Positions 30,663-64,000 are shown, numbered from the stretch's first letter. The stretch is 64,000 nt of DNA from Terriglobia bacterium (GCA_020073085.1 JAIQFV010000009.1:124162-188161); one strand, 5' to 3'. Made by a program: numbers and translations. Notes: generated from the sequence alone by a model not told the origin.

Positions 30663-30667
30663 AGCTT

Positions 30668-35520: not shown

Positions 35521-35531
35521 CTTCATCGAGA

Positions 35532-36748: not shown

Positions 36749-36833
36749 AATTCACGGGGCCAAATTTTTTCAATTTTCATTGTGAGGATTCCCACCCCTC
36801 GCCAGAACCGGCCGAAAGGATGGGGCACTCGCT

Positions 36834-37598: not shown

Positions 37599-37742
37599 TG
37601 GAATCTCCTTCTTGAGATTTGCTTCGTTCGTATCGCCCGTGACCAATTTCCACGCGCCAAAACTCCACTCCGAACAAACGAATGAGTAATGCCGTGCCAT
37701 CTTGGCAATTGCCGCCTTTCGAGATGAACTACCTTCCCAAGC

Positions 37743-37950
37743 GCAACGAAGTGCCCCCGCCACTAAAACGTGGCGGGGCTACCAAACCTTTCTAGAAGGC
37801 CAAACTCCGGTGGCCTGCAACGAAGTGCCCCCGCCACTAAAACGTGGCGGGGCTACCAAACCTTTCTAGAAGGCCAAACTCCGGCGGCCTGCAACGAAGT
37901 GCCCCCGCCACTAAAACGTGGCGGGGCTACCAAACCTTTCCGAAAGGTAA
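37743..37950. repeat. tandem array 3 of structured palindromic repeat (3 units of about 72 bp)
   Basis: Three near-identical copies of gcaacgaagtgcccccgccactaaaacgtggcggggctaccaaacctttctagaaggccaaactccggtggcct. Confidence 0.9.
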
Positions 37951-37952
37951 TG

Positions 37953-49233: not shown

Positions 49234-49779
49234 GGGTGGTGACCTGCATTGAGATCAAGGACTTCCTTTGCGAGTAGAGAACAGCCTCCGAGATTCCTGC
49301 TAGAAGTGTAACACTGTATGCATCACTTTTGCACAAGAAGTGTGGTGTGAGCCCATTTCATCTGCTCCATCCTGCCCCAAAGAAAACCATAAGCCTCTAA
49401 CTTCGATCTCTGGTTTAGTGGATCGGGTTGACCACCATTCGAGCCACTTCAACTTGACTCCATTTCCTGCCTGTGTTCTCTTGACCCTTGGCAGTTCAAG
49501 CAAGGATTCGAGTTGCCATTCGTAACTTTTGGGAACCGGGCCTCGTCTCTAAGACCTTCACCTTCCGGCGGCTCAAACCATTACAATGGTGGATCTCTCT
49601 TACGAGGCCGGATTAGCCCTTTTACTTGAATTTCAAGAGCTCAAAATTCACGATTGATCCATCTTTCTCGATGACCCAATTCCTTCTAGGGCTTTTCGAT
49701 CAAAAGCCTTTCAAATTGCCGAACCCTTTCACCGAATGAATCCGATCCAACAGCTCTTCAATCCACGGAGGCATGACTC

Positions 49780-52056
49780 ATGAAGTTACTCAAAGGGATT
49801 GCTTTTATGATTATTTTACTCGGAGCGGCCTCAGTCCTCTACTTCGCCCAGGAAGCAGAAGACCGGACGCTTCTTCCCTGGTCGATCGTTCAGAAGATTG
49901 TGGACGAGGCCTCCGGGGACCGCGCCATGCATACAATGCTCGAAATCGCCCCCTATCCACGGCACCGGAGCAAGGAAGAATACGAGAACAAGTTTCTGGA
50001 GAGTGCCTACATTGAGCGAAGGGCCAGGGAAGCGGGGCTTGATGGAGTCGCCGTGGAACGCTTTCCAGCGGGAGGCGGTCCGGCGACAGGAAGAGGGGAT
50101 GCAGGAAACACACAAGCACCCGCAAATCCGTTCGCGGGCAAGACATGGGAGGGTTCGATCGGCCAGCTCTGGCTGGTGGAGCCCCGGCCCCATAAGCTAC
50201 TCGACTATGCGGATGTCCCGACCATGCTGTGCGCGAACAGCGCAAATGGCGACTGGACAGCCGAACTGATTGACGTCGGGAACGGGTCCCGCCCCGAAGA
50301 TTACAAGGACAGGGATGTCAAAGGGAAGATCGTTCTCGGGTCCGCCGCCCCCGGCGTGCTTCAGCGTATGGCCGTATTTGAGCGGGATGCGATCGGAGTG
50401 ATTTCATATAACTCCTTGCGACCGGAGTACGATGTCCAGCAGTCCCTCTGGGAAGGCATTCAGACTCAGCCTCCCAATCAACCCCGGTTTGCCGGGAAGA
50501 AAGCGGGATTCGGTTTCAAGCTCAATGCCGAGATGGGACGCGAACTGCGCGCGCAGTTGGATCGAGGGACTAAGGTAAAACTGCGTGCCGTCGTCCAGGC
50601 GGATTGGTATCCCAACACCATGGAAACCGTGTTTGCCCGGATCGCGGGGGACGGGTCGAGCGAACAGGAGATCATACTCTCTGCACATCTCTACGAAGGC
50701 TACTTGAAACAAGGCGCCAACGATGATGCCAGTGGCAGCGCTGCCATCCTCGAGGTCGCACGAACACTGAACGCCTTGATCCACAGTGGACAGCTCTCCC
50801 GACCCCGCCGGACCATCAATTTTCTGTGGGTGCCGGAAATCAGCGGTACCACGGCCTGGCTCCGCGCCCATGAGGAAATCCGCAAGAGACTCATCAATGA
50901 CATTAACATGGACATGGTGGGGGAAGGACTACAGAAGAACAACGCCTCCTTTGTGTTGAGCCGCACTCCCGATACGACGCCCAACTATCTGAACGACGTG
51001 ATGCAGAGCGTTTTCGAATTCCTTGGAAACACCAACCGGGAACGGGTCCGCTATCGCGCCGGCGGCTATGCCATGTCCTACCCGATCGTTTCTTCGATCG
51101 GTTCCGCCGAACCGTTCCACTTCAACATCGATAAGCATTATGGGGCCTCGGACCATGTGGTTTACCTCAACAATGGAATCCCGGCCACAATGATGGGCGT
51201 GTGGCCGGACATGTGGTATCACTCCTCCGGCGATACTCCCGACAAGGCGGATCCCACCCAGCTGAGGCGCGCGGTGGTGCTCAGCGCCATGGGGGCTTAT
51301 ATTGTCGCCTCCGCGGACGATGCCGGAGCCGCACGGATTGGGGCTGAGTCTCTGGCGAGAGGGGACGCCCGCATCGGCGACGCCCTTCGGAAAGGGCTTG
51401 CTTACCTTGCCGACTGGAACTCAGACCTGCTCCCCTCCGCGTTTAAGGAAGCCATCAATACAGTTCGTCATCAGGGAAGAATTGAAAAAGCCACGTTCGA
51501 ATCTGTGCAAACGCTGCTGCCGTCATCGATGACCGATGAAGCCAAGGAGAAAACGGTCGACCCGTTCCTTTCGATCATCGATGAAAGAACCTGGGTGGCA
51601 GAGAAACAGGTTACGGAGTTTTATGTCCTCCGGACAAAACGGGCTCCACCGGAGCTCATTTTGACTGCGGACGAGGCCAAGGCGGCACGGTTGATCCCGG
51701 AGCGAATCGGAGGTCAGGGAGGATTTGGGGGCGGGATCGCACGACTCCTCGAGCAACAACCGGAAGCCGACCGCAAAGCCCTCGAAGAGGCGTTGAGGAA
51801 GGTGCCCCAGCATATGACCGCGGAACTCAATGTAATGCTGGCCCGCAATGGAAACAAGGATGATCCCCGCAAGTATTCGGTTCTCGAGATCCGCGACTTT
51901 CTCTCGGGAGAATTTGAACCCATTACCCTGCAGGACATGACGGCGTACTTCAATGCCCAGGAAAGACTCAAGTCGATTCGATTGATCGAAAGAGCGGAGG
52001 AACCGGCGGCGGCGCCGAAAGGTCAGAAGTCGAAAGGTAAGAAGGGTGGAAGATAA
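49780..52056 (+). CDS. M28 family zinc peptidase with PA domain (secreted)
   Basis: Signal peptide. GANDDASGSAAILEVARTL and HSSGDTPD metal-ligand motifs typical of M28. Confidence 0.7.
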   Translation: MKLLKGIAFMIILLGAASVLYFAQEAEDRTLLPWSIVQKIVDEASGDRAMHTMLEIAPYPRHRSKEEYENKFLESAYIERRAREAGLDGVAVERFPAGGGPATGRGDAGNTQAPANPFAGKTWEGSIGQLWLVEPRPHKLLDYADVPTMLCANSANGDWTAELIDVGNGSRPEDYKDRDVKGKIVLGSAAPGVLQRMAVFERDAIGVISYNSLRPEYDVQQSLWEGIQTQPPNQPRFAGKKAGFGFKLNAEMGRELRAQLDRGTKVKLRAVVQADWYPNTMETVFARIAGDGSSEQEIILSAHLYEGYLKQGANDDASGSAAILEVARTLNALIHSGQLSRPRRTINFLWVPEISGTTAWLRAHEEIRKRLINDINMDMVGEGLQKNNASFVLSRTPDTTPNYLNDVMQSVFEFLGNTNRERVRYRAGGYAMSYPIVSSIGSAEPFHFNIDKHYGASDHVVYLNNGIPATMMGVWPDMWYHSSGDTPDKADPTQLRRAVVLSAMGAYIVASADDAGAARIGAESLARGDARIGDALRKGLAYLADWNSDLLPSAFKEAINTVRHQGRIEKATFESVQTLLPSSMTDEAKEKTVDPFLSIIDERTWVAEKQVTEFYVLRTKRAPPELILTADEAKAARLIPERIGGQGGFGGGIARLLEQQPEADRKALEEALRKVPQHMTAELNVMLARNGNKDDPRKYSVLEIRDFLSGEFEPITLQDMTAYFNAQERLKSIRLIERAEEPAAAPKGQKSKGKKGGR

Positions 52057-52203
52057 GCGCATGGGTGGTCCCTGTACAGACTTCAGGGTGAGCCTTTGCA
52101 TCGAGACTACTTTCCATAAGTCTGTCTCTTGTTGCGAAAGTATTATAGTTTATTTGAATTCACGAGGAGGGTGGGCTGTTCTTTAGCGGGAAGGGGTGTA
52201 CCT

Positions 52204-54000
52204 TCAGGGAGCGTTCACCGAAAATTGGGTTTCCGGGTTCACATCTACCGAGATGACGGGGAGAATAATTCTGAAGGTGGCGCCGCCTTTCAAGTTATTC
52301 TCGGCGGTGATCTTCCCGCCGTAATGCTGCAAGATCGAGTGTCCCACACTGAGTGCCATCCCGGTGCCCTTGCCCACTTCTTTCGTCGTATAGAAGGGCT
52401 CGAAGATCCGGTTGGGGTCTTTGACTCCGGGTCCGTCGTCAGAAATCGACACGAACGTGTTGTCGCCATCTATTCCTGTCGAGATGGCGATGGTCCCGCC
52501 ATCCTTTACATCGCGGATGGCCTCCATGGCGTTTTTCAGGATGCTTTGAATCACCTGAACGAGGCGATCCCGATTGACATTGACCCACATGGGATCATGC
52601 CCAAAGCGCAACTTCGTGTTGATATGACAGTCCTGAAAATCCTTTTCAAACGGACTTAAAGATTCCACGACGAGGTCGTTCAGCTCGATGGATTCCACTG
52701 CATGTTCGGGGACCCGGACGAAGCTTTGCAGACTCTCTACAATTTTCTTGGAGCGCGCCGCCGCCTGGAGGATGCGGTCGAATCGCTGACGCAATTTCGG
52801 ATCGAGCGCCTTATCCTGCAGCGAAAGCTCAGAAAACCCCATGACAGTAGTCAGCGGGTTATTCAACTCGTGGGCTGCCCCCGAAATCATCTGGCCGAGA
52901 GCCATGAGTTTCTCGGCATGCTGGAGTTGCCGTTCCATGGTCTTCATTTCGGTGACATTGCGCCCCACGGTCAGGACGCCGGTGACGTGGCTCTCGGCGT
53001 CATAGACAGGCGACATGGAGATTTGAAGAGTGCGGTAATTCTCCTGGGGCGCTTCCATCTGAATTTCCAGGGATTGGGGCTTGCCCTGAAAAACAGCAGT
53101 GGCCGCCTGTTCCACAAGGAATCGGTCTTTCCCCCGAATAAACTCGCGATAGCTTCTTCCCTTCAGCTCTTCGGAACTCAGGCCCAACCCCTCCTCACAC
53201 TTCTTGTTGGCCCATTGAAACTTGCCCTCTTGATCGGTGACAAAAATGGAATCGTTCGCATTGTCCACCAGGCTCTGGACAAACTCGCGGTGTTTCACGG
53301 CGTCATCCCGATGCTTCTGCACCCCGACTTTCTCGCGCTCGAACAAGTAAACGAACATACCCACCGCCGCAAAGAATCGGGGCAGGTCAAGGAATTGCAG
53401 AAGCAGTGGGGTGAGATACTCCCACCTCAGAACGATACCAAAACTCATGAGGCCGATTCCGCCCGCCGCAAAGCCGAAGATCAGCGTTTGGACCCCGATG
53501 GAATGCGGTCTCTCTCGAGAGCGGAAAAACACCCAGCCGGTGTATAGAAATACGAGACCGATCAACAGGCTAAACACGGAAAAGTGGTAAAACACCAGCA
53601 CCTTCCAAAAATAACCTGGGGTATTGGAGCGCGTGACATCGGGGGTCGCGGAGGCGGAATGATAGGCTTGCCAGTAGCTGAGGAGTGCAAACAGGAGGCC
53701 CAGACCGACAACCGGGGCGCGGGGCGTTCGCAAGCCAACAAAGGTCCGCGCACTGAGGCAGAACATGATGGCAGCAGCCGCCAGCAAGATCTCATCCAGA
53801 AGGAGTGCAAACTGTATGTTTCCCAGGCCGTTAATGACGGCTACCTGTGCCAAATATTGGAGCAGTAACAGCCCCCAGCCGAGTGTCCACAGCGTGAAAA
53901 ACCGCTCCCTCAACCCTCGCTTGGAGAAGACGAAGAAGATAACCGCGAACAGAGCGATGGTGAGAAATGTGGTCAATCCGTCGGCTAGATAAAAGTCCAT
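52204..54000 (-). CDS. membrane sensor histidine kinase (multi-TM + PAS + HisKA/HATPase)
   Basis: About 6 N-terminal TM helices, PAS region, H-box HELNNPLTTVMGF, G-boxes (GTGMALSV, GGKITAEN). Confidence 0.85.
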   Translation of the reverse strand: MDFYLADGLTTFLTIALFAVIFFVFSKRGLRERFFTLWTLGWGLLLLQYLAQVAVINGLGNIQFALLLDEILLAAAAIMFCLSARTFVGLRTPRAPVVGLGLLFALLSYWQAYHSASATPDVTRSNTPGYFWKVLVFYHFSVFSLLIGLVFLYTGWVFFRSRERPHSIGVQTLIFGFAAGGIGLMSFGIVLRWEYLTPLLLQFLDLPRFFAAVGMFVYLFEREKVGVQKHRDDAVKHREFVQSLVDNANDSIFVTDQEGKFQWANKKCEEGLGLSSEELKGRSYREFIRGKDRFLVEQAATAVFQGKPQSLEIQMEAPQENYRTLQISMSPVYDAESHVTGVLTVGRNVTEMKTMERQLQHAEKLMALGQMISGAAHELNNPLTTVMGFSELSLQDKALDPKLRQRFDRILQAAARSKKIVESLQSFVRVPEHAVESIELNDLVVESLSPFEKDFQDCHINTKLRFGHDPMWVNVNRDRLVQVIQSILKNAMEAIRDVKDGGTIAISTGIDGDNTFVSISDDGPGVKDPNRIFEPFYTTKEVGKGTGMALSVGHSILQHYGGKITAENNLKGGATFRIILPVISVDVNPETQFSVNAP

Positions 54001-54244
54001 GAGTGCTCCTGGCGAGAGAAGGTTCCTCGCCCGTGCTGCTTATTTTTTCGGCTAAAGGAGGGAAAACTTTAGAAAATAATGACCCGGAGGAGGAACTTCT
54101 CCCAAGGAACCCGCATGCGTCACTGTTCCATTGCCCCCCACCTGCGATTTCTTTATCATAAAGAGGAGTGGAAACTCCCTGTCCATGCTCAAGCGGGATC
54201 TGGCAATCCCACCGCTCAACTCAGGTCACGAAAGGAAATAAGGA

Positions 54245-55540
54245 ATGAAACCGCGATATTGGATCATCCCGGCGGCCATGATTGCCATCGCTGCCCTTCT
54301 TCTGAGCTTTTCGGCAAAGGCGAGCAACTCGCTGAGAAGTGCGATTCCCGCCTCAAGCCCCGAGGAAAAATCCCCGCCGTTCTTCAAGATCCGCGCCATT
54401 ACGGCGTTTGTCTCCATCGACCCCGGCCGGATCGAAGAGGCGGTCTCCGAGGCGGTTCAGTTCCTGGAGAAATCCCGGGACCGGTTTCAATCGGCCGGGT
54501 TCGAGGTCCAAACCATTCGGCTGGCCACCCAGCCCTTTCCGGAATATACGAAAAGCATGTCACACCGGGCGGCACTCGAACTGATCCAAAAACTGGATCG
54601 ATTGGCGGTGCAGCACCACCTCGATCTATCCATTGGACCGGGAATTCTCGAAGACCGCGACGATCCGGAAGCGGTGGCATTGATTACGGATATTCTGTCG
54701 CATACCCAGACCACCAATACCAGCGTGACGGTGGCTACTCCGGAACGCGGGGTTCAACCGAAAGTGGTTCGCGCGGCGGCACAGATCATGAAGAACCTTT
54801 CCACAGCCTCAAAGGGTGGCATCGGAAACTTCAGCTTTGCCGCGGCAGCAAACTGTCCTGCCGGGATTCCATTCTTCCCCACTGCTTACCACCTCGGAAC
54901 CCAAAAGCAATTTGCCCTGGCCATTCAGTGTGCCAGCCTGGTTCAGGAGGCCTTTGCGCATTCCCTCTCGCCTGCGGAAGCTCGTGTCAACCTGAAGAAG
55001 ATCTATGAAGCGCAATTGCATCCGGTTGAAGTCATCGCTCAGGGATTGTCGGAGGAGACCCGGTGGAATTATGAGGGGATGGATGTATCCACGGCTCCGT
55101 TAAAGGAAGTCTCAATCGGCGCAGCGATCGAAACCCTGTCGGGAGTCCCGTTTGGAGATCACGGCACGCTGACGGTTGCCGCCCTGATCACGGATGTCCT
55201 GAAGAGCTTGAACTTAAAGCGTGCTGGATATTCCGGACTGATGATTCCGGTCATGGAAGACGCGACCATTTCACGGCGGGCGGCCGAAGGAAGGTTGTCA
55301 CTCGACAAACTGCTCCTGTTCTCGTCGGTCTGCGCCACCGGCATTGACGTGGCGCCGATTCCGGGCGATACCCCGTCGGCTGAAATTGAAAGGGTCATCA
55401 TGGACGTGGCCTCCCAGTCCACCAAGCTGAAGAAACCTCTTGCCGTCCGACTCCTCGTGGTACCGGGGAAAAAGGAAGGGGCCATGACGGAATTTGAAGA
55501 TCCGTTCCTGGTCAATACGAAGGTGATGTCTGTGAAGTGA
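54245..55540 (+). CDS. DUF711 / UPF0210 family protein
   Basis: IRAITAFVSIDP near N-terminus. C-terminal LLLFSSVCATGIDVAPIPGDTPSAEIERVI...VRLLVVPGKKEGAMTEFEDPFL...VMSV matches the UPF0210 family C-terminal signature (recollection). Confidence 0.7.
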   Translation: MKPRYWIIPAAMIAIAALLLSFSAKASNSLRSAIPASSPEEKSPPFFKIRAITAFVSIDPGRIEEAVSEAVQFLEKSRDRFQSAGFEVQTIRLATQPFPEYTKSMSHRAALELIQKLDRLAVQHHLDLSIGPGILEDRDDPEAVALITDILSHTQTTNTSVTVATPERGVQPKVVRAAAQIMKNLSTASKGGIGNFSFAAAANCPAGIPFFPTAYHLGTQKQFALAIQCASLVQEAFAHSLSPAEARVNLKKIYEAQLHPVEVIAQGLSEETRWNYEGMDVSTAPLKEVSIGAAIETLSGVPFGDHGTLTVAALITDVLKSLNLKRAGYSGLMIPVMEDATISRRAAEGRLSLDKLLLFSSVCATGIDVAPIPGDTPSAEIERVIMDVASQSTKLKKPLAVRLLVVPGKKEGAMTEFEDPFLVNTKVMSVK

Positions 55541-56130: not shown

Positions 56131-57129
56131 TCATTCCGGATTGCGAAGCTCATTCAGGGCTTGTTCGACGTAAGGGCGAACCATTTGCTTGCGCCAGTAC
56201 ATGAGGAAATCGGTGTTGTCGAGGGGTTTGGCCACGGCATGCGCAGCGGCCGCGGCGGCGCGAATGCTGCTCTCACCCAAGGGGCGACCAATTAAGAGTT
56301 TCTGCGCTTCAGTGACTTCCATCGCATGCGGGGCGATGGCGCCCAGGATGAGTTTCGCGTCCCGGACAGTCGCGTGATCCTCTTCAAACCAGACACAGGC
56401 CGCGACGCCAAGCACCGGAAAGTCGAACGCCCCGCGACGCCTCAGTTTTGCGTAGCTGGCGCGCCATCCATTGGCCGGAGGAAGCAGGATTTCGGTCAAC
56501 AGTTCGTTGTGCTGTTTTGTTAAATAGTGAATTCCATCAAACCTGGAATAGAGTTGAGCGATGGGAATCACCCGCTCTCCCCCGGGAGAAACCAGTTTGA
56601 CCCGAGCACCCAACGCGATCAGGACTGGCACTTCATCCGCCGATTGAACGGCCCAGCAAACTTTCGATCCCGGCGCCACCCAACAGGTATCGCCGTCTTT
56701 CTTCAGGCAGAAGTGAACTCCTTTGCGCCATTCGTAATTCTGGTCATAGTAATTGCAGCGCGTATCGAGGAGCAGATTGCCGCCGAGGGTTCCCATATTC
56801 TGCAGGACCGGGGTCGAGATCAGTCTCGCTGCATGAGCGATGACGGGGTAATATTTTTGAATGGTCCGATTCTCAATCAATTCAGTCAGGGTCACGGCAG
56901 CTCCGACGCTCACACCCGTGGTTGAAGGAGCACCTGTGATTTTTTTTAGAGCGGCAATACGCTGCAAACCAATCACGACCTTGGGGGTCTGCTGGCGGCG
57001 CTTCATGTTGGGATACAGATCCGTTCCCCCCGCGACGAATTGTCCCTCGGCGCCGGCTTCCGCCATCAGCTTCACGGCATCTGCAATCTTCCGTGGGGCA
57101 TGATACTCAAACTTTGGGAGTCGCATCAT
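56131..57129 (-). CDS. hcrB: FAD-binding subunit of a xanthine-dehydrogenase-family molybdoenzyme, HcrB-like with [4Fe-4S] insertion loop
   Basis: FVAGGTDLYPNMK FAD fold plus an inserted loop TRC-x15-C-x7-C-x8-C (CNYYDQNYEWRKGVHFCLKKDGDTCWVAPGSKVC). Cys spacing 16/8/9 is identical to that described for the cluster-binding loop of 4-hydroxybenzoyl-CoA reductase beta subunit. Confidence 0.7.
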   Translation of the reverse strand: MMRLPKFEYHAPRKIADAVKLMAEAGAEGQFVAGGTDLYPNMKRRQQTPKVVIGLQRIAALKKITGAPSTTGVSVGAAVTLTELIENRTIQKYYPVIAHAARLISTPVLQNMGTLGGNLLLDTRCNYYDQNYEWRKGVHFCLKKDGDTCWVAPGSKVCWAVQSADEVPVLIALGARVKLVSPGGERVIPIAQLYSRFDGIHYLTKQHNELLTEILLPPANGWRASYAKLRRRGAFDFPVLGVAACVWFEEDHATVRDAKLILGAIAPHAMEVTEAQKLLIGRPLGESSIRAAAAAAHAVAKPLDNTDFLMYWRKQMVRPYVEQALNELRNPE

Positions 57130-57144
57130 CGGGAGACCCGTTCG

Positions 57145-58125
57145 TTATTTCTTAAATGGCAAATGATCCAGATCCACATTCCCGCCCGACAAGATAATCC
57201 CAATCCTCCGGTTCGCGAATCCCGCGATCTTCTTAAAGATCGCCGCCGCGACCGCCACGGCGCCGGAGGGCTCAACGACGATCTTCATCCGTTCCCAGAT
57301 ATGCCGCATCGCCTCGATGATCTCATCCTCGCTGACGGTCACAATTTCGTCCACCAGCTTATGGATAACCGGAAACGTCTTCTCTCCCAGGGATGAGCGG
57401 AGGCCATCCGCGATGGTCTGCGGATGAGCTTGCAGGATGATCTTTCCGGCTTGCTTCGATTGAAACGCATCATCAGCACCCTTGGGTTCACATCCAATGA
57501 TCCAGGTTTCGGGGGAAAGACTTTTCATGGCAAGCGCGGTCCCGCTGATTAATCCCCCACCGCCGACCGGGGCCAACAGAAAATCGAGCCCTTCTTCCAC
57601 CTGCTCGTGGAACTCCACGGCGCAGGTTCCCTGTCCGGCAATGACGCGGTAATTATTGTAAGGATGGATGAGGACGGCGCCTGTTCTGGCCATGAGTTCA
57701 TCCGTCATCGACTCCCGCGCCTCCAGGGTGGGTTTGCAGAAGGTGATCTCTCCTCCATAGTTTCGGATCGCTCCGACCTTTGGCGCCGGGGCATTTGAAG
57801 GCACCACGATGTATGCCTTTATGCCTCGAATCCTGGCAGCCATCGAGAGCGCGGCCCCATGGTTGCCGGAAGAGTGAGTGATCACCCCCTTCGCGGCTTC
57901 CGCATCATCCAGCGACAAGACGGCATTGATGGCCCCTCGCGCCTTGAAGGCGCCTCCCTTTTGCAGGTTCTCGCACTTAAAGAAGACCTGGGCGCCGGCC
58001 ATCTCGTTCATCGTCCGGCTCGTCATGACGGGGGTTCGATGGATGTGCGGCCGTATTCGCTGGAGAGCTTCCCGAATCGTCTCCAGTCCTGGCTGAGTCT
58101 CAGCGTTTATGGTTGGAGTTGTCAT
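57145..58125 (-). CDS. PLP-dependent threonine/serine dehydratase family enzyme
   Basis: FFKCENLQKGGAFKARGAINAV (PLP-Lys motif), GNHGAALSMAA, tetraglycine loop region. 326 aa without ACT domains (catabolic/serine-racemase-like type). Confidence 0.8.
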   Translation of the reverse strand: MTTPTINAETQPGLETIREALQRIRPHIHRTPVMTSRTMNEMAGAQVFFKCENLQKGGAFKARGAINAVLSLDDAEAAKGVITHSSGNHGAALSMAARIRGIKAYIVVPSNAPAPKVGAIRNYGGEITFCKPTLEARESMTDELMARTGAVLIHPYNNYRVIAGQGTCAVEFHEQVEEGLDFLLAPVGGGGLISGTALAMKSLSPETWIIGCEPKGADDAFQSKQAGKIILQAHPQTIADGLRSSLGEKTFPVIHKLVDEIVTVSEDEIIEAMRHIWERMKIVVEPSGAVAVAAAIFKKIAGFANRRIGIILSGGNVDLDHLPFKK

Positions 58126-58340
58126 AAGAATTCAATCACACTTTCTTTAGGTGTTTCTGAGTTTTGGTAACCCCGGTCCGCCGCGGCATCCGCCATTATT
58201 GCCGGCGGATCGCCGGCGGATTTTCGGGTTTTGGCAGCCCCGGCGAGCCCGCCGCGGCGGGCCGGGGGATAATCACGCGGTCTCACGGAAGCCCCGGTTT
58301 GCCATGGCGGACATCTGGTCAACTCGGTACCGAACATTCC

Positions 58341-60965
58341 TCACTCTCTTGCATGGACGGCTTCACGTGACATTTCCTTTCCCGTCCCGCCCTCCCAGGG
58401 AGGCTTAACACGGACGGGTTCCGGCCAATCCACCTCAGGAACGGACTTGGGCCCATAACGGTGCGGTTCTTCGACCCCCCGGGTAATGCCTGTTCCTCTG
58501 CTGTCGGTCGATTCCACGTCATCTTCCTGTCTTTCGGCCCCCTTCTGAATCGCAGACAAAACCTTGTCGGGAGTGATGGGGACCTCATCAATGCGCACCT
58601 GGACCGCATCATAAACCGCGTTGGCAATGGCGGGCGGGACCGGCAGCAAGGGTCCCTGTCCGACTTCCTTGGCGCCGAAAGGGCCGTTGGGATCCGGATC
58701 TTCAATCAGAAATGTCTTCACGTCGCACATTTCCAGCGTCGTGGGCGATTTGTATTCGAGGAGGCTGGGGAATTTGTGCACGACATTCCGATTCGCCCGG
58801 TAACTCATTTCTTCCATCAGAGCCTCACCCAATCCCATGTAGACCGACCCCTCCACCTGTCCCAAGGTCAAGGCCGGATTAATGGCGCGTCCGATATCGT
58901 GCGCCATCCAGATTCGCTCCACCCGCACAATCCCGGTGCGCGGGTCCACCTCGACCTCGGCGACCGCCGCATCGTAACTGTATGCCGGAGAGGGACCGAC
59001 ACCCGCTCCCTTGTATCTTCCCGCTGAGGGAGGCGGCGTATAACTGCCGACGGTCCCAATCGTTCCGAACCTGGCCTCGGCGATTTGAACCGCCTCGGCG
59101 AATGAGATGGACGTCTCGGGATTCTCCACATCGAATAACCGGCCCCCGGAAAAGGAAAGATGAGTGGCGGGAATGTTCATTTTTTCCGAAACCGCGCGGA
59201 CGAGAAGGTCCCGGGCGCGTTCAGCTGCCTCCAGCGCCGCATTCCCCGTCATCAGCGTCACCCGGGAGGAATAACTCCCAAGATCAACAGGAGTGAGATC
59301 AGTGTCCGCCGTGAGGACTCGAATGTCGAAGGGATCAATCCCGAATACCTCGGCAACAAGGTAGGCGAGGATCGAATCGGAACCCTGTCCAATGTCGATC
59401 GATCCACACATCACGCACACACCGCCTTGACGGTCCAGCCGGAGCTGCACCCCGGAATGCGGCATGTGATTCCAATAAATGGGAAGTCCGGCGCCACTCA
59501 GGTAGGACGCACAGGCCAGCCCTATGCCTTTTCCGTAAGGGAGGTTTCGGAATTTGTTCTTAAAGTCGCTCGCCGTGACCACCTTGTCGAGACACGCGGC
59601 CAGCCCCATCGAGCCAACCCTCAAGTAATTTGCGGTAAGCGAATGGGGCTCCACCAGATGGTTCTTGCGAATTGCCACTGGATCGAGCCGCAACTGCTCC
59701 GCAATCTTGTCGAGATGAATCTCGAGGGCATAGCGGGGTTGCGGCGTTCCGTGGCCGCGCTTGGGTCCGCAGGGCGGCTTGTTGGTAAACACACGGACGC
59801 CTTCGAACTTGTAATTCGGAATTTTGTAGGTCACCGTCTGCAACGCCCCCGTGTAATAGGTGGAGGCAACCCCATAACTGCCGTAAGCCCCGCCGTCGAG
59901 GAAGGAGCGGAAATGCATCGCCGTGATCGCGCCGTCCTTCTTTGCCCCCGTCTTCACCCACATGAGCACGGGATGTCGTCCCCGGTGGCAATAAAACACC
60001 TCTTCCCGCGTGAGGGTTACTTTCACGGGGCGGCCCGTTATCATGGCAAGTTTTGAGACAATCATCTCGTGGGGAAATGGGTCACTCTTGCCGCCAAAGC
60101 CGCCTCCATTGGGCGTGGCGATGACCCGGATACGGCTGGCAGGCATTTCCAGTACTTTTGCGAGCGCCCGGTGGACATAATGCGGGGTCTGCGTGGAGCT
60201 CCATAAACAGAGCTTGCCGTCGCCGTCCACCTGGGCCACGGCGGCGTGCTGCTCCATGGGAAGGTGCGTATTGCCTTCGTAAAAGAATACATCTTCCCGA
60301 ACCAAATCGGCCTGTTTGAATCCTTCTTCCACGTCGCCAAACTCCAAGGCCACCATCTTGTGAACATTGCCGTGATCCCCATAGCTGTGGATGCGCCAGG
60401 CCTCTTTGCACTCTCCGGGATTCTCGGAGCCGCCGGTCTTTGAAAGTCCATCTCCGGTGCGCAGAGATTCAGGATTTCTCAATGCATCCTGTATCGAGGA
60501 AACGACAGGCAGAGGTTCGTATTCCACTTCGATGGCGTTCATGGCTTCAAACGCCGAATCCTCGTCGATGGCAGCAACAGCGGCAACCGGATCACCAATC
60601 ATGCGGACCTTCTCGAGGCACAGCGCGTGCTCGTCCTGGCTGACCGGTAATATGCCGTAGGGGAGGGGGAGGGACTTCCCCGTAATGACCGCGACCACAC
60701 CGGGCATCGCCTCAGCCTTCGACGTGTCAATTTTTCGAATCAGGGCATGGGGGACGTGACTGCGCAGGATTTTACAGTAGAGCATCCGCGGCAACACGAT
60801 GTCGTCGGCAAATTTCGTTTGCCCGGTTACCTTGGCCGAGGCATCGATCTTGCGAAGCGGCTTGCCGACAACGTTGAGATGTTTTGAGCTTCCGTTCTTC
60901 ATGAGATAAACCGCAAAAGGTTTGGTAGCCGTGATCCCGTTCTTTAGGATCGCGGGCTTTTCCAC
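58341..60965 (-). CDS. hcrA: molybdopterin-binding large subunit of xanthine-dehydrogenase-family enzyme (HcrA/CoxL-like)
   Basis: VGKPLRKIDASAKVTGQTKFADD N-terminus, aldehyde oxidase/xanthine dehydrogenase a/b hammerhead and MoCo-binding body. Alternative start MKNGSS at 60902. About 70-aa unusual C-terminal extension. Confidence 0.85.
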   Translation of the reverse strand: MEKPAILKNGITATKPFAVYLMKNGSSKHLNVVGKPLRKIDASAKVTGQTKFADDIVLPRMLYCKILRSHVPHALIRKIDTSKAEAMPGVVAVITGKSLPLPYGILPVSQDEHALCLEKVRMIGDPVAAVAAIDEDSAFEAMNAIEVEYEPLPVVSSIQDALRNPESLRTGDGLSKTGGSENPGECKEAWRIHSYGDHGNVHKMVALEFGDVEEGFKQADLVREDVFFYEGNTHLPMEQHAAVAQVDGDGKLCLWSSTQTPHYVHRALAKVLEMPASRIRVIATPNGGGFGGKSDPFPHEMIVSKLAMITGRPVKVTLTREEVFYCHRGRHPVLMWVKTGAKKDGAITAMHFRSFLDGGAYGSYGVASTYYTGALQTVTYKIPNYKFEGVRVFTNKPPCGPKRGHGTPQPRYALEIHLDKIAEQLRLDPVAIRKNHLVEPHSLTANYLRVGSMGLAACLDKVVTASDFKNKFRNLPYGKGIGLACASYLSGAGLPIYWNHMPHSGVQLRLDRQGGVCVMCGSIDIGQGSDSILAYLVAEVFGIDPFDIRVLTADTDLTPVDLGSYSSRVTLMTGNAALEAAERARDLLVRAVSEKMNIPATHLSFSGGRLFDVENPETSISFAEAVQIAEARFGTIGTVGSYTPPPSAGRYKGAGVGPSPAYSYDAAVAEVEVDPRTGIVRVERIWMAHDIGRAINPALTLGQVEGSVYMGLGEALMEEMSYRANRNVVHKFPSLLEYKSPTTLEMCDVKTFLIEDPDPNGPFGAKEVGQGPLLPVPPAIANAVYDAVQVRIDEVPITPDKVLSAIQKGAERQEDDVESTDSRGTGITRGVEEPHRYGPKSVPEVDWPEPVRVKPPWEGGTGKEMSREAVHARE

Positions 60966-61022
60966 GCAGGTCGCAAGAGCTCGAGGGCTAAAGCCCTCCT
61001 TGACTTAAATCAACGTGATCAA

Positions 61023-61178
61023 GGCCTGGCTAAAGCCAGACCCTTACAAGGCCCTGTCTCTTCAATCCGTACACAACTTCCTCGGAGATACTGATTCAAA
61101 TCCACATGCTCATGATTTGGCTGAAGCCAGGCCCTTACAAGGGCTTTTCACTTCAATCCGTACACAACTTCCTCGCGG
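61023..61178. repeat. about 92-bp tandem duplication spanning the hcrC 3' end and the hcrC-hcrA spacer
   Basis: ggct(a/g)aagccag(a/g)cccttacaagg(c/g)c...cttcaatccgtacacaacttcctcg occurs twice. The second copy encodes the last 8 codons (EEVVYGLK*) of hcrC. Confidence 0.8.
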
Positions 61179-61714
61179 ACCTCTGCCTTTTCCCCGCGCA
61201 TACGGGCCGCCGCCAATTCGACCGCCTCGTAAATCTTGATGTAGCCCGTGCAACGGCACAGGTTGCCCGACAGCGCCTGGGCAATCTCTTCACGGCTCGG
61301 CTTCGGATTCTTTTCCAGCAACTCCTGGGCCGTCAGCAAAAATCCCGGCGTACAGTAGCCGCATTGGGCGGCCCCAAGATCGGCGAAGGTTTCCTGCAGC
61401 GGGTGCAACCGGCCATCCGATAGTTGCATTCCCTCCACCGTCATCACCTCGTGTCCTTCGACATCGAGGCCCAGGACGAGGCACGAGAGAACCGGTTTGC
61501 CGTCCAGCAGCACCGTGCAGGTCCCACATTCGCCCAGCTCACACCCGTGCTTGGTCCCGGTGAGATTCAGATCTTCGCGCAAAACCTCAAGCAGGGTCTT
61601 ATGAGGTGCAAATGCAACCTCGCAAGGCTCCCCGTTCAGGACGAACGCAATGTGCGCTTTTTGCTTCCGACTTTTCGCCCTGGGATTCATCGTCTTCTTA
61701 ATTCCGGACTTCAT
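61148..61714 (-). CDS. hcrC: (2Fe-2S)-binding small subunit of xanthine-dehydrogenase-family enzyme (HcrC/CoxS-like)
   Basis: CELGECGTCTVLLDGKPVLSC plant-type cluster motif and CRCTGY second-cluster motif. Confidence 0.85.
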   Translation of the reverse strand: MKSGIKKTMNPRAKSRKQKAHIAFVLNGEPCEVAFAPHKTLLEVLREDLNLTGTKHGCELGECGTCTVLLDGKPVLSCLVLGLDVEGHEVMTVEGMQLSDGRLHPLQETFADLGAAQCGYCTPGFLLTAQELLEKNPKPSREEIAQALSGNLCRCTGYIKIYEAVELAAARMRGEKAEVREEVVYGLK

Positions 61715-61729
61715 CGCACTCTGCTCTCT

Positions 61730-63148
61730 TCATAACCGGACATACTCAAAATCGAACGGCTTTCCGCCAACACCGCTTTTGGGTGGCGCAATCCAGTTGG
61801 CGATCTTTCCCGGGTCAGTGACGGGTTTCATCAACTCGCGCACATAAGCCCGATCCTCTTGCCCGGGCAGCCAGAAGGGGGCCCTTGATTCGAACTCTTC
61901 CTTCGAAACCAGGTTGCCTTCAAGATCGAAGCAGTGGTTCGCGAATTCACCCTGATGGCGATGAAAACGGGTGGAGGGAAGGACCAGCCTCGTGGAGATA
62001 CCCTCTTCCTCCAGCGCTTTGTTCCACCTTGCCAGACCGCGCTCGCAATCCTTGACATACTCGCCACGCAGCACTTCGTTCAACGCATTCCGGAGCGGGG
62101 CCTCTTTCGTGGTGAGCCTTCCGTTCTCGATCACGGTCAGCGAATAGGTGGTGTCACTGATCACATGGTCTTCATACTTTTTCTGCTCGAGATAGCGCCC
62201 TTTCAAGCCCGCCGAGAAGAAGTCCGCTGCATTGGAAGAAATCTCGCCACCGAAAAGATCAAGCGAATAGCTGTACCAGAAATTGATGTAGCGCTGGATG
62301 ATGGAGAGGGGGATGCCGCTGAGCGCCCTCACCTCGTTGTCGCCCTGATTCTTTGTCTGCTTCATCAGCTCCGCGGTGCGTTTCACGATGCGCTCCAGGC
62401 CCGACTCTCCCACAAACATGTGGTGCGCTTCCTCGGTCAGCATGAACTGGCAGGTGCGCGCCAGCGGCTCGAAACCCGACTCGGCCAGGGACGCGAGCTG
62501 ATATTTTCCATCGCGGTCCGTGAACATGGTAAATGCGTAAAAGTTGAGCCAGTCATCACACGGCTGGTTGAAGGCGCCCAGGATGCGCGGCTTGTCGGTG
62601 TCGCCGCTCCGCCGCTGAAGCAGCTCCTCGGCCTCCTCACGGCCGTCGCGTCCGAAGTATTTTTGGAGGATGTACACCATCGCCCACAAGTGTCTCCCCT
62701 CTTCCACATTCACCTGGAACAGGTTTCGCAGGTCGTACATCGAAGGGCAGGTGGCGCCCAGGCTCCGCTGCTGTTCGACGGAGGCCGGCTCGGTATCGCC
62801 CTGGGTCACGACAATGCGGCGCAGTGCGTTGCGAAACTCCCCGGGAACCTCCTGGTAGGCCGGGTTGCCGCAACCATCTCCAAACCCGATGGTGGCGTTT
62901 TCTTTGGAAGGGTTCAGGAAGATCCCCCAGCGATATTCCGGCATCTTGACATAATCAAAATGGGCCCAGCCCTCGGGCTCTACCGACACGGCGGTCCGAA
63001 GGTAAACATCGCGCCCCTGGAACCCCTCCGGTCCCATTTCGTTCCACCAGGACAGGAAATTCGGAAGCCATTTCTCCAGCGCGCGCTGAAGCTGGGGATC
63101 GTTGCTGAGATCGACATTGTTGGGAATTTTATCGAAGACGCTCATCAA
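61730..63148 (-). CDS. boxB: benzoyl-CoA oxygenase component B (BoxB)-like di-iron protein
   Basis: 472 aa (BoxB is about 473 aa). N-terminus MMSVFDKIPNNVDLSNDPQLQRALEKWLPNFLSWWNEMGPEGF agrees with recollection of BoxB N-termini. Multiple E/H candidates for a di-iron site (EEAHHMF). Confidence 0.5.
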   Translation of the reverse strand: MMSVFDKIPNNVDLSNDPQLQRALEKWLPNFLSWWNEMGPEGFQGRDVYLRTAVSVEPEGWAHFDYVKMPEYRWGIFLNPSKENATIGFGDGCGNPAYQEVPGEFRNALRRIVVTQGDTEPASVEQQRSLGATCPSMYDLRNLFQVNVEEGRHLWAMVYILQKYFGRDGREEAEELLQRRSGDTDKPRILGAFNQPCDDWLNFYAFTMFTDRDGKYQLASLAESGFEPLARTCQFMLTEEAHHMFVGESGLERIVKRTAELMKQTKNQGDNEVRALSGIPLSIIQRYINFWYSYSLDLFGGEISSNAADFFSAGLKGRYLEQKKYEDHVISDTTYSLTVIENGRLTTKEAPLRNALNEVLRGEYVKDCERGLARWNKALEEEGISTRLVLPSTRFHRHQGEFANHCFDLEGNLVSKEEFESRAPFWLPGQEDRAYVRELMKPVTDPGKIANWIAPPKSGVGGKPFDFEYVRL

Positions 63149-63189
63149 TTGTCCTTTGGCGAGAATCTTGAGTCGTGAAACGGAGTAGC

Positions 63190-63310
63190 CGTCTTGATAC
63201 CGAAGCCAGAAGCGAGAAGCCGGACGCCAGAGGTCGGAAGTCAGAAGTCAGAGCTCAGAAATGAGACCACTAGGATCACAGTCTCTGGCTTCTGGCATCC
63301 GGCTTCTGGC
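63190..63310. repeat. inverted low-complexity repeat (gaagccagaagc / gcttctggcttc arms) between boxC-like and boxB-like
   Basis: gaagccagaagcgagaagccggacgccagaggtcggaagtcagaag ... ctctggcttctggcatccggcttctggcgtcc. Confidence 0.8.
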
Positions 63311-63325
63311 GTCCATTGAATACCT

Positions 63326-64000
63326 TCATGTCCTTCGAAAGTCAAACTTCGCCTTCGTCGGCTTCCCGTAATTCGTCAGCGCTCCGTGTTCGCCGACGGC
63401 GTTGGGCCGCTGGAAGATCCAGTTCTGCCAGGCGGTGAGGCGTCCATAGATCTTGGTGTCGGTGGTTTCCGGGCCGGCGAATCGCAACGAGGCCTCCATG
63501 CCGGTCAGGGCGTCTGGGGACAGCGAAGTCCGCTCTTCGATGGCCACGCGGATCTCATCGTCCCAGTCCAGCCCGTCGGGCACCAGGGTGACAAGGCCAG
63601 CTTCGAGCGCGGGGTCGGCTGAGAAATGAGCGGGAGGTTTCAAAGCAGCCTCGACCCGGGCGGTATCGTTGAGAAAGCGGGATTCCAGGCGCGAGAGGCC
63701 GTTTGACATCGGCAGTGCGCCGGCGTTCATCGAATTAGTAACAATTCTAATCGCTTGATCCGGGTCGTTTCGCATGTAGATGCGATCCGAAGCGAGTGCA
63801 AGTTCCAGGAGATTCCCCGCGAAGCAACTTCCCTCTTCAATCAAAGTAAAGAAACTCTTGGCGGTATGATCCATCCGGCGCAGAACGCGACCCATATGGA
63901 GAATGATCTCCCGCACCAATCCATGGTTCCGGTGGTTTGAGAGTATTTCATCGATCCGGAGGATGGCGTCCAATTCGCCGTGAGTGCGGACACACACCAA
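63326..64000 (-). CDS. C-terminal part of a crotonase-fold protein, possibly BoxC-like benzoyl-CoA-dihydrodiol lyase (N-terminus beyond window)
   Basis: 224 aa, open to the window edge. Lies immediately upstream of boxB-like on the same strand. Assignment rests on context plus vague C-terminal resemblance only. Confidence 0.35.
   Translation of the reverse strand: MVCVRTHGELDAILRIDEILSNHRNHGLVREIILHMGRVLRRMDHTAKSFFTLIEEGSCFAGNLLELALASDRIYMRNDPDQAIRIVTNSMNAGALPMSNGLSRLESRFLNDTARVEAALKPPAHFSADPALEAGLVTLVPDGLDWDDEIRVAIEERTSLSPDALTGMEASLRFAGPETTDTKIYGRLTAWQNWIFQRPNAVGEHGALTNYGKPTKAKFDFRRT

Follow-up and report, generated by a model that had tools for sequence, protein, structure and literature searches.

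Why would a relative of the 'anaerobic' 4-hydroxybenzoyl-CoA reductase (HCR) be encoded beside the oxygen-dependent enzymes BoxB and BoxC, apparently in one operon of a soil acidobacterium? The two are paired repeatedly in Acidobacteria that are abundant in soil, suggesting that phenolic acids are broken down by a mixed route not yet described. We analyzed a 64-kb stretch of DNA (the window) from a Terriglobia (Acidobacteriota) bacterium, at one end of which all six open reading frames of the original prediction were found where it had placed them. All are on the minus strand. First comes boxC, truncated where the window stops, then boxB, and after it the genes for a small subunit with two [2Fe-2S] clusters, for a Mo subunit, for a PLP enzyme and for an FAD subunit. 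Their features are as follows.

63326..64000, minus strand: boxC (2,3-epoxybenzoyl-CoA dihydrolase), 3' part only, truncated where the window stops; TIGR03222 positions 321-547, 283 bits
61730..63148, minus strand: boxB, di-iron benzoyl-CoA 2,3-epoxidase; TIGR03225, 749 bits, cut-off 499
61148..61714, minus strand: small subunit, two [2Fe-2S] clusters; Pfam Fer2 and Fer2_2
58341..60965, minus strand: molybdopterin large subunit, HCR-like; TIGR03194, 810 bits, cut-off 995 (994.55)
60375..60482, minus strand: low-complexity insertion, large-subunit residues 162-197, specific to this Terriglobia clade
58344..58460, minus strand: conserved C-terminal tail, large-subunit residues 836-874, RYGPKSVPEVDWPEPVRVKPPWEGGTGKE..., from alignment and motif search
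58126..58340, minus strand: 215-nt spacer from the large-subunit gene to the PLP gene, with two copies of a dispersed GC-rich repeat
57145..58125, minus strand: fold-type II PLP enzyme of the serine-racemase / 3-hydroxyaspartate-dehydratase type; NF045641 (BhcB), 453 bits, cut-off 550
56131..57129, minus strand: FAD subunit; TIGR03195, 246 bits, cut-off 405 (404.55)
56632..56772, minus strand: insertion loop, FAD-subunit residues 120-166, with C125, C141, C149 and C158 as predicted ligands of an extra [4Fe-4S] cluster, from the HcrB alignment

The best explanation of this layout is one catabolic operon, boxC-boxB-small-large-PLP-FAD. Only 15 nt separate the boxB stop from the start of the small-subunit gene, and again the PLP stop from the start of the FAD-subunit gene, and no terminator-like site was found in any intergenic gap on this strand, suggesting that the genes are co-transcribed. 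They are adjacent, not fused as had been claimed. By their Pfam and NCBIfam domains, the products of 61148-61714 (two [2Fe-2S]), 58341-60965 (Mo) and 56131-57129 (FAD) are subunits of a xanthine-oxidase (XO) family enzyme, and their order is, as predicted, the gamma-alpha-beta order of hcrCAB, with the PLP gene splitting the alpha-beta pair.

The two proteins that had been called BoxB-like and BoxC-like are genuine members of their families. The boxB product, well above the TIGR03225 cut-off, aligns end to end with BoxB of Azoarcus evansii (3PER; 605 bits, 56% identity) and has the same di-iron motifs, EEGRH and TEEAHH. The boxC fragment, upstream on the same strand, encodes the C-terminal 224 residues. 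Its product shares 91% identity with residues 342-565 of BoxC in the related locus L004, a full-length orthologue that scores 787 bits against a TIGR03222 cut-off of 712. A search of the flanks for a regulator had also been proposed. One was found outside the window, in the relatives L004, L006 and L008, where a BoxR/BzdR-type protein (HTH plus shikimate-kinase-like domain; PRK08154, 290 bits, cut-off 204) is encoded divergently, upstream of boxC.

The search for boxA and a ligase, by contrast, gave nothing in the window or the closest relatives. Within the 64-kb window there was no tblastn match to BoxA and no open reading frame with two 4Fe-4S motifs, and boxA (TIGR03224) is absent from all 13 loci that pair boxB with HCR-like genes. 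Searches of the 64-kb window and of the flanks of L004, L006 and L008 gave no CoA ligase homologue, and neither a 4-hydroxybenzoate-CoA ligase nor a low-potential ferredoxin lies in the window or the flanks of its closest relatives. Compared with the Box clusters of Azoarcus evansii and Burkholderia (boxABC, boxD, bclA, boxR), the locus therefore shares BoxB, BoxC and the BoxR/BzdR-type regulator above family cut-offs (full-length BoxC and the regulator from relatives), but boxA, boxD and a ligase are missing from the window's operon and flanks, and the Mo-enzyme genes take the place after boxB that boxA holds in the canonical loci sampled.

HCR is also where the large subunit points. In a PDB search its best match was HcrA of Thauera (1RM6_A, 574 bits, 40% identity), and the next match scored 263. 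A neighbour-joining tree without support values, in which HcrA and its 50%-cluster representative P0140 are the only characterised HCR, puts it in the HcrA superclade, on a separate deep branch that is not sister to HcrA. The typical Mo active-site residues Q259 and E767 and the GGGFGGK motif are invariant in all 35 family members aligned, indicating that the Mo site is under selection and is not a relic. The GTG start at 60965 is uncertain, and orthologues are better matched by an ATG at 60902 (residue 22). In the alignment, Pyrinomonadaceae and Acidoferrales orthologues lack the insertion at residues 162-197, as does HcrA.

The large subunit had further been credited with an acidic C-terminal extension of about 70 residues. 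The length is right (about 68 residues past the end of HcrA), but only a short variable linker is acidic, and the last ~38 residues are rich in Pro and Trp and kept across the whole family. The motif of this tail occurs in 66 of 66 family members (64 fit the search pattern and two differ at one position, with W-Q-E-P in place of W-P-x-P), compared with only 2 of the best-scoring 150 50%-cluster representatives; HcrA and PaoC do not have it. The extension is a conserved feature of the family and not a one-off acidic tail.

The FAD subunit, too, has its HCR counterpart as best PDB match (1RM6_B, HcrB; 178 bits, 40% identity; next 117), and the four-Cys insertion foreseen in it aligns in register: C125-x15-C141-x7-C149-x8-C158 matches C122, C138, C146 and C155 of Thauera HcrB without gaps. 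The alignment of the CO-dehydrogenase subunit CutM breaks in two and leaves out residues 120-166, so the motif is part of a genuine insertion, and its spacing (16/8/9), invariant in 83 of 83 orthologues, reflects conservation and not chance. The loop would thus be expected to bind an extra [4Fe-4S] cluster. It had been taken as a unique signature of inverted electron flow, and this we cannot uphold: PaoB, from an E. coli enzyme that oxidises aldehydes, has four Cys inserted at this very site, though differently spaced, and works oxidatively, so that the direction of the reaction cannot be read from the loop.

PaoABC (PDB 5G5G) resembles the window enzyme in being a heterotrimer of the XO family whose insertion starts at the same 'TRC' position. 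The two are only 28-29% identical, however, the PaoB spacing is C-x9-C-x8-C-x18-C, the window subunits fall far below the PaoA and PaoC NCBIfam cut-offs, and PaoABC is an aldehyde oxidase without a CoA-ester context. PaoABC resides in the periplasm, and its PaoA subunit carries a Tat signal; the translated small subunit of the window has no Tat signal. This small subunit is generic within the XO family, with nicotinate dehydrogenase as its best PDB match and HcrC sixth, and it scores 174 (173.8) bits against the HCR gamma family TIGR03193 (cut-off 258, 257.8).

The enzyme thus has the same three subunits, in the order gamma, alpha, beta, as HcrCAB of Thauera aromatica (PDB 1RM6/1SB3) and HbaBCD of Rhodopseudomonas palustris, and HcrCAB is the best structural match of its Mo and FAD subunits, including the ~40-residue FAD insertion. 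It differs from them in that all three subunits lie under the equivalog cut-offs (TIGR03194, TIGR03195, TIGR03193), and it adjoins O2-dependent box genes in presumed aerobes, not anaerobic benzoyl-CoA reductase genes, in an operon with no ligase or ferredoxin gene. Judged by sequence, it is a member of a distinct Acidobacteriota-wide family in the HCR superclade, not a demonstrable Hcr. The original reading is partly supported, and none of the three observations named beforehand as refuting it was made.

This family is present in hundreds of Acidobacteriota species genomes. Its genes lie beside boxR-boxC-boxB in 13 loci from two Terriglobia lineages, the BoxB proteins of which are only ~60% identical, and never beside boxA. 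Four further loci of the window's clade have the identical gene order, and nine in Ca. Acidoferrum/Acidoferrales have boxD(-), then boxR boxC boxB ... TetR small large FAD. With a dedicated TetR gene directly before the Mo-enzyme genes, and benzoate/4-hydroxybenzoate-type CoA ligase genes in some of the loci, the Acidoferrales arrangement is the one usually seen where a peripheral funnel module is attached to a central pathway. Some loci of this group hold ligase, boxD, boxR, boxC and boxB, and only boxA is missing.

In Pyrinomonadaceae the setting is another one. There, ~70 loci have the Mo enzyme with no box gene within 10 kb; it is flanked by folK-panB-panC and mocA, and its other neighbours (maf, gatCA) are likewise housekeeping-like. 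In about one third of the Pyrinomonadaceae loci the enzyme lies two genes upstream of a cluster with aromatic-pathway NCBIfam matches, which suggest a Trp-to-anthranilate, aryl-CoA hybrid pathway and would again point to aryl-CoA substrates. Across classes, the Mo enzyme is 72-76% identical.

We propose, with a probability of about 0.5, that the Mo enzyme is a reductive funnel, converting 4-hydroxy- or other ortho/para-substituted benzoyl-CoA to benzoyl-CoA for BoxB and BoxC. The cofactors of the three-subunit enzyme would be Mo-pterin, FAD, two [2Fe-2S] clusters and the predicted extra [4Fe-4S] cluster. Electrons would enter by the [4Fe-4S] cluster at the surface and travel by way of FAD and the two [2Fe-2S] clusters to the Mo site, which would reductively strip a para (possibly ortho) hydroxyl or amino group off an aryl-CoA, with 4-hydroxybenzoyl-CoA as the default candidate. 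The product, benzoyl-CoA, would serve both as effector of BoxR and as substrate of BoxB, to be epoxidised with O2 and then cleaved by BoxC, and a BoxR/BzdR-type benzoyl-CoA regulator would be transcribed divergently just upstream, as in close relatives.

Several observations argue for the reductive funnel, among them the invariant Mo-site residues, the funnel-type layout in Acidoferrales, the aryl-CoA cluster near the enzyme in Pyrinomonadaceae and the short gaps without terminators. Among characterised enzymes, HCR is nearest to the Mo and FAD subunits, far ahead of the CO, xanthine and aldehyde dehydrogenases; the loop has the exact HcrB spacing in every orthologue; the linkage to box genes recurs in two Terriglobia lineages; and benzoyl-CoA is the sole metabolite that logically links an HCR-type enzyme to both BoxB and BoxR. 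Against it stand the 40% identity to HcrA and HcrB and the scores of all three subunits below the HCR cut-offs, as well as the position outside a sister relationship with HcrA, since substrate specificity in this enzyme family often shifts at such distances. The Pyrinomonadaceae loci without nearby box genes and the cross-class identity, unusually high for a peripheral catabolic enzyme, also speak against it, as do the missing 4-hydroxybenzoate-CoA ligase, low-potential ferredoxin and boxA in the window and its closest relatives' flanks. Finally, HCR chemistry depends on strongly reducing electrons, and these organisms are presumably aerobic.

Several of these points would suit an enzyme that runs in the oxidative direction of the XO family, as a hydroxylase or dehydrogenase of an aryl-CoA, heteroaryl-CoA or aldehyde, with the [4Fe-4S] cluster as electron exit as in PaoABC. 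Adjacency to the box genes would then reflect shared regulation or CoA-ester chemistry and not the supply of benzoyl-CoA. The invariant E767, the catalytic Glu that acts as base in hydroxylases, is in keeping with such an enzyme, PaoB demonstrates that an enzyme may carry an extra Fe-S loop here and still turn over oxidatively, and presumably aerobic hosts (Terriglobia, Pyrinomonadaceae), strong conservation in Pyrinomonadaceae without box neighbours and a position at 40% identity outside the HcrA clade would all be expected. We nevertheless consider oxidative turnover rather unlikely. No oxidative substrate accounts for the repeated location directly downstream of boxB under a benzoyl-CoA-type regulator, and the presence of BoxD in the Acidoferrales loci means that the Mo enzyme is not needed there to oxidise the pathway semialdehyde. 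Moreover, the Cys spacing is of the HcrB and not the PaoB type, and the small subunit lacks the Tat signal of periplasmic PaoA.

The absence of boxA from these loci raises the question whether the Mo-FeS-flavoprotein replaces BoxA as redox partner of BoxB, perhaps an obligatory one, its surface [4Fe-4S] cluster feeding the di-iron centre with electrons that the Mo site might gain by oxidising a pathway compound; if so, the epoxidase system would be NADPH-independent and self-contained. BoxA (TIGR03224) is itself an FAD and [4Fe-4S] protein, the HCR-like genes of the window start at the canonical boxA position, 15 nt after boxB, and some Acidoferrales loci are complete except for boxA. Of the 51 boxB loci that have 3 kb or more of downstream sequence, 6 contain boxA and 9 contain HCR-like genes, and none contains both; however, the remaining 36 have neither, so that boxB without adjacent boxA is the norm in this sample. 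In two Acidoferrales loci with HCR-like genes (L148 and L169), boxB is followed immediately by genes for a [2Fe-2S] ferredoxin and for a ferredoxin reductase, so that another donor exists there, and in Acidoferrales a TetR gene separates boxB from the Mo-enzyme genes. A pure electron carrier would not retain an 850-residue Mo subunit with invariant active-site residues, nor would the family be kept in Pyrinomonadaceae loci without box genes. A substitution for BoxA is thus improbable. In a related, likewise improbable variant, with which the separate occurrence of boxA and HCR-like genes is also compatible, the Mo enzyme would serve in repair, reducing back to benzoyl-CoA the hydroxybenzoyl-CoA that arises when the 2,3-epoxide aromatises spontaneously.

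That the genes are side by side without any functional reason, the Mo enzyme having a general role in Acidobacteriota unrelated to benzoyl-CoA and being a chance neighbour of box genes in some Terriglobia, would agree with its housekeeping-like surroundings in Pyrinomonadaceae, its very high cross-class conservation and the plastic gene order implied by unrelated cargo at the large-to-FAD junction, but is improbable given the tight, same-strand linkage to boxB in 13 loci of two lineages with completely different surroundings, and a nearest characterised relative that acts on a benzoyl-CoA derivative.

The PLP dehydratase-family gene noticed between the Mo and FAD genes was confirmed. Its product has a PALP domain with PLP-lysine and Gly-rich loop motifs, and its top PDB matches are serine racemases. 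It shares this fold-type II domain with serine racemase, threo-3-hydroxyaspartate ammonia-lyase and BhcB, but misses the equivalog cut-off of NF005454 (threo-3-hydroxy-L-aspartate ammonia-lyase; 383 bits, cut-off 452) as well as that of BhcB. Orthologues inside the operon are confined to this clade. The relatives at 61-65% identity are stand-alone genes from many phyla, for which a setting between two Mo-enzyme subunit genes is not seen, and other loci have other cargo genes at the large-to-FAD junction. The PLP gene, widespread as a stand-alone gene, has been inserted into the operon in this clade only. It does not belong to the conserved system and is most likely passenger cargo. The spacer before it (58126..58340) has no Rfam family match and no terminator-like site on this strand; the core of its repeat has 14 matches in the window, compared with 0.14 expected. 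In L007 and L008, the large-to-PLP junction measures only ~10-50 nt.

The minus strand of the window at 56131-64000 carries a head-to-tail series of six genes:

63326-64000, minus strand: last 224 residues of BoxC, the gene being truncated by the window end
61730-63148, minus strand: BoxB, 472 aa
61148-61714, minus strand: small subunit, 188 aa
58341-60965, minus strand: Mo (large) subunit, 874 aa counted from the GTG
57145-58125, minus strand: PLP enzyme, 326 aa
56131-57129, minus strand: FAD subunit, 332 aa

The boxB-small and PLP-FAD gaps measure 15 nt each, and no intergenic gap of the operon holds a terminator-like site on the minus strand or a match to an Rfam family. The GTG start (window 60902-60965) gives the Mo subunit a 21-residue N-terminal extension that is not conserved in L007 and L008, which are more distant orthologues. 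A better fit to the orthologues, and the more likely start, is the ATG at 60902 (MKNGSSKHL...), 21 codons past the GTG. Exact protein look-up returned no record for the BoxB product and, for the PLP product, only short contigs of the same organism.

Overall, we found the original prediction's observations on the window to be correct throughout. The product of 61730-63148, described there as a BoxB-like di-iron oxygenase, is a genuine BoxB: it scores 749 bits against TIGR03225 (cut-off 499), its residues 2-471 align with the crystallised BoxB of Azoarcus evansii (3PER; 605 bits, 56% identity), and its di-iron motifs EEGRH and TEEAHH are identical to those of 3PER. The crotonase fragment upstream of it matches the C-terminal part of BoxC, as predicted, and the full-length BoxC orthologue in the closest related genome scores 787 (cut-off 712). 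The window contains no homologue of boxA, boxD, tetR, mocA or a ligase gene, and no open reading frame with two 4Fe-4S motifs.

Pfam searches found all three canonical subunits of a xanthine-oxidase-family enzyme, and the gene positions bear out the order small-Mo-FAD. Of the solved structures, HcrA of Thauera 4-hydroxybenzoyl-CoA reductase (HCR) is the best match to the large subunit (574 bits, with CoxL of CO dehydrogenase next at 263) and HcrB to the FAD subunit (178 bits, with CutM next at 117); the small subunit is generic, HcrC being its sixth-best match. Alignment of the FAD subunit with HcrB and CO dehydrogenase upheld the predicted four-cysteine insertion. C125, C141, C149 and C158 align without gaps to HcrB C122, C138, C146 and C155, the reported ligands of the [4Fe-4S] cluster in HcrB. 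CutM aligns in two blocks that skip residues 120-166, indicating that the loop is a genuine insertion, placed as in HcrB, and the C-x15-C-x7-C-x8-C spacing is unchanged in 83 of 83 orthologues. Within the large subunit, Q259, GGGFGGK and E767 are invariant in 35 aligned family members, which argues that the Mo site is under selection.

The enzyme nevertheless stands apart from HCR. Its subunits are 40% identical to Thauera HcrA and to HcrB, and all three miss the NCBIfam HCR equivalog cut-offs (810 vs 995, 246 vs 405 and 174 vs 258). We built a tree of the large subunit from full-length hits of a search of 1.84 billion 50%-identity cluster representatives, plus HcrA and PaoC of the E. coli aldehyde oxidoreductase. 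In this neighbour-joining tree, which carries no support values and includes one characterised HCR sequence, the window protein, its Terriglobia relatives and the Pyrinomonadaceae and Acidoferrales orthologues form one clade (representative P0121). That clade shares a superclade with HcrA, whose own cluster representative (P0140) is 61% identical to it, but is not the sister of HcrA. These comparisons bear out a likeness to HCR more than the predicted Hcr identity itself. The acidic C-terminal extension of about 70 aa predicted for the Mo subunit is real, but its acidic part is a short variable linker, found with a low-complexity insertion at residues 162-197 in the window's own clade only; what is conserved across the family is a tail of about 38 residues, R[FY]GPxxxPxxxWPxPxxVxxPxEGGxGxE. 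All 66 family members have the tail (64 fit the search pattern and two deviate at one position), as do 2 among the 150 representatives with the best scores; HcrA and PaoC lack it, and it is the family's own marker. An AlphaFold2 model of the large subunit from the 35-sequence family alignment (mean pLDDT 52, tail <50) was too poor for reading the tail or for a fold search.

With the FAD subunit as query, a scan covering a single genome for each GTDB species yielded at least 560 relatives, of which the 80 best were essentially all from Acidobacteriota; the nearest, in a Terriglobia MAG, is 94% identical, which places the window in Terriglobia. The loci of the window's clade (L004, L006, L007 and L008) show 70-94% amino-acid identity and an identical boxC-boxB-small-large-PLP-FAD order. 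Where the sequence reaches far enough, a divergent BoxR/BzdR-type regulator lies upstream (PRK08154, 290 bits, cut-off 204), and the flanks contain no boxA, boxD or ligase gene; of the partners sought, these relatives have the regulator, and boxA and the ligase were absent within their flanks.

Two further settings were found, with gene order in high-GC metagenome loci obtained by mapping reference proteins with tblastn. In Ca. Acidoferrum/Acidoferrales (large subunit 61-62% and BoxB about 60% identical to those of the window), nine loci (L144, L148, L154, L158, L162, L165, L167, L168 and L169) carry the Mo-enzyme genes beside boxR, boxC and boxB, and none of them has boxA. Contigs of sufficient reach read boxD(-) / boxR boxC boxB, then variable genes, then TetR, small, large, FAD, except that L154 and L162 have the Mo-enzyme genes on the upstream side of boxC. 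Among the variable genes are one of the Amidohydro_2 family, one for an enoyl-CoA hydratase and, in two of the loci, those for a [2Fe-2S] ferredoxin and its reductase; some loci have a benzoate-CoA-ligase-family gene. About 70 Pyrinomonadaceae/Blastocatellia loci have the order folK-panB-panC-small-large-(variable small genes)-FAD-mocA followed by a thioredoxin-like gene, with no box gene within 10 kb.

Downstream of that thioredoxin-like gene come either maf/gatCA or a putative aryl-CoA cluster, which lies two genes after FAD-mocA in about one third of the Pyrinomonadaceae loci (L027, L029, L037, L042, L044, L045, L047, L049 and others). It encodes tryptophan 2,3-dioxygenase, kynureninase, a benzoate-CoA-ligase-family protein, acyl-CoA dehydrogenase, enoyl-CoA hydratase, RidA and a salicylyl-/2-aminobenzoyl-CoA monooxygenase-reductase split into separate FAD and OYE genes. 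Most of the best NCBIfam hits fall below curated cut-offs; the gene content suggests a tryptophan-to-anthranilate, aryl-CoA hybrid pathway. In related Blastocatellia-type genomes boxC-boxB-tetR-ech-ech-sdr occupies the same position upstream of maf, so that the site directly upstream of maf holds either an HCR-like cluster (L010-L079) or a boxC-boxB cluster (L087-L097) in related Pyrinomonadaceae/Blastocatellia. GatA proteins from a locus of each kind are 72-74% identical, which falls inside the 69-85% span among the HCR-like loci themselves.

No metabolite but benzoyl-CoA connects an HCR-type enzyme with both BoxB and BoxR. The most economical reading, to which we assign a probability of about 0.5, is a peripheral reductive funnel in which the HCR-like enzyme supplies benzoyl-CoA to BoxB and BoxC. 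An aryl-CoA with a para (possibly ortho) hydroxyl or amino group, by default 4-hydroxybenzoyl-CoA, would be reduced at the Mo site by electrons entering through the [4Fe-4S] cluster and passing to the FAD and then the two [2Fe-2S] clusters. The product, benzoyl-CoA, would induce the operon via BoxR, and BoxB and BoxC would dearomatise and then cleave it. This funnel agrees with the dedicated TetR gene that precedes the Mo-enzyme genes in Acidoferrales, and with the ligases of some loci. Gene identities, motifs, family structure and synteny are results of the analysis; substrate, direction, electron donor and co-transcription are inferred. Against it stand the 40% identity to HCR and the missed equivalog cut-offs, the very high conservation in the box-less Pyrinomonadaceae setting, the lack of a ferredoxin or ligase gene accompanying the window operon, and hosts that are presumed aerobes.

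The original prediction had read the four-cysteine loop as the signature of inverted electron flow, and this did not survive comparison with PaoB, the FAD subunit of the aldehyde-oxidising PaoABC of E. coli. PaoB aligns to the window FAD subunit as a single block through the loop region and has four cysteines, differently spaced, in an insertion starting at the same 'TRC' position. The Fe-S loop is thus a shared option within the xanthine-oxidase family and no proof of reductive chemistry or of a direction of electron flow, although its spacing here is still of the HcrB type. With PaoB as its precedent, an oxidative role of the HCR-like enzyme is conceivable, and we consider it unlikely.

More doubtful still is that the Mo enzyme replaces BoxA as redox partner of BoxB. 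This reading is kept alive by the mutual exclusion of boxA and the HCR-like genes: in a sample of 51 boxB loci (from the metagenome loci L084-L163 around boxB) for which 3 kb or more is available downstream, boxA directly follows boxB in six, HCR-like genes are present in nine and both in none. However, 36 of the 51 have neither, so that boxB without an adjacent boxA is common in the sample, and two Acidoferrales loci with the Mo enzyme (L148 and L169) also have genes for a [2Fe-2S] ferredoxin and for a ferredoxin-NAD(P) reductase straight after boxB, which are likely to offer BoxB another source of electrons. The boxA-less majority of the sampled box clusters raises the question of the BoxB electron donor in these bacteria. 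A role as substitute for BoxD was rejected, BoxD being present in Acidoferrales loci. That adjacency to the box genes carries no meaning is about as improbable as the replacement of BoxA.

The presence of HCR is read as a sign of strictly anaerobic aromatic degradation. Soil metagenome homologues annotated '4-hydroxybenzoyl-CoA reductase' are very many (at least 8000 candidates per search), and their hosts are abundant, presumably aerobic soil Acidobacteriota (Ca. Acidoferrum, Pyrinomonadaceae and other Terriglobia). In Terriglobia the HCR-like family appears, from gene content and order, to be wired to the Box pathway, which depends on O2. Conclusions about anaerobic aromatic catabolism drawn from metagenomes may therefore be wrong where they rest on this label, and the finding bears on how the HCR annotation is read in soil surveys. 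If the funnel is true, it would be an undescribed route for lignin-derived phenolic acids that bypasses protocatechuate, with reductive dehydroxylation followed by O2-dependent epoxidation of the CoA ester, and would suit soils with fluctuating oxygen. Full-text literature searches returned no description of a box-linked HCR-type enzyme or of the HCR-like family in Acidobacteriota. The parts belong to known families; what appears to be new is that the family is distinct, has a tail of its own, spans the phylum and is hard-wired to an oxygen-dependent pathway. With two clear markers, the unique C-terminal tail and the Fe-S loop of HcrB type, the family makes a well-defined target for biochemistry.

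The PLP gene, singled out in the original prediction as unexpected between the Mo and FAD genes, does lie there, and its product is an intact enzyme of fold type II. BhcB and threo-3-hydroxyaspartate ammonia-lyase, the families which that product matches best, both score below cut-off, and its best structural matches are serine racemases. Orthologues with at least 69% identity occur in the window's clade only, those checked occupying the same junction; the next relatives (61-65% identity) are spread over many phyla and, where checked, occur as single genes in unrelated surroundings. The gene is missing from the locus in Acidoferrales and Pyrinomonadaceae, and with the nearest outside relatives standing alone this disfavours an integral pathway step. 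The large-to-FAD junction of the Pyrinomonadaceae loci (L009-L083) is between 0 and about 2 kb long and contains small genes of unrelated kinds, of which we take one, by eye, to be BrnT-like (toxin) and one retropepsin-like, the others having no obvious identity. This variable cargo marks the position of the PLP gene as an insertion hotspot, and we concluded that the gene is clade-specific cargo there; it is probably co-transcribed with the operon and gives no sign of a pathway role.

The spacer before the PLP gene is about 215-265 nt long in the window, L004 and L006, where it contains dispersed-repeat copies (two in the 215-nt window spacer), and about 10-50 nt in L007 and L008. A regulatory RNA or terminator in the 215-nt spacer was rejected (no Rfam hit, no same-strand terminator-like site, fold z-score -2.0, absent in L007/L008). 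The GC-rich hairpin repeat, with the core CCCCCGCCAC-loop-GTGGCGGGGCTACCAAACC, occurs at window 35087-38033 and also at 30664 and 58161-58243, and is arranged in tandem arrays, with repeat units of 74 and 141-142 nt, that flank the ORF 36834-37763. It looks REP/BIME-like. The repeats at 36.4-38.0 kb, with their 74-nt period, were considered as a CRISPR array, a reading discarded because what lies between the cores is itself repeated.

Downstream of the operon, window 44941-55540 holds genes unrelated to aromatic catabolism, in an order kept in L004, L006 and L008. A family-library scan identified a PRK05313-like protein of unknown function on the plus strand at 54245-55540. The others we read by eye as presumably a sensor histidine kinase (598-aa membrane protein, 52204-54000), a peptidase (758-aa secreted protein, 49780-52056) and a protein whose N-terminus is Ser/Thr kinase-like (1430 aa, 44941-49233).
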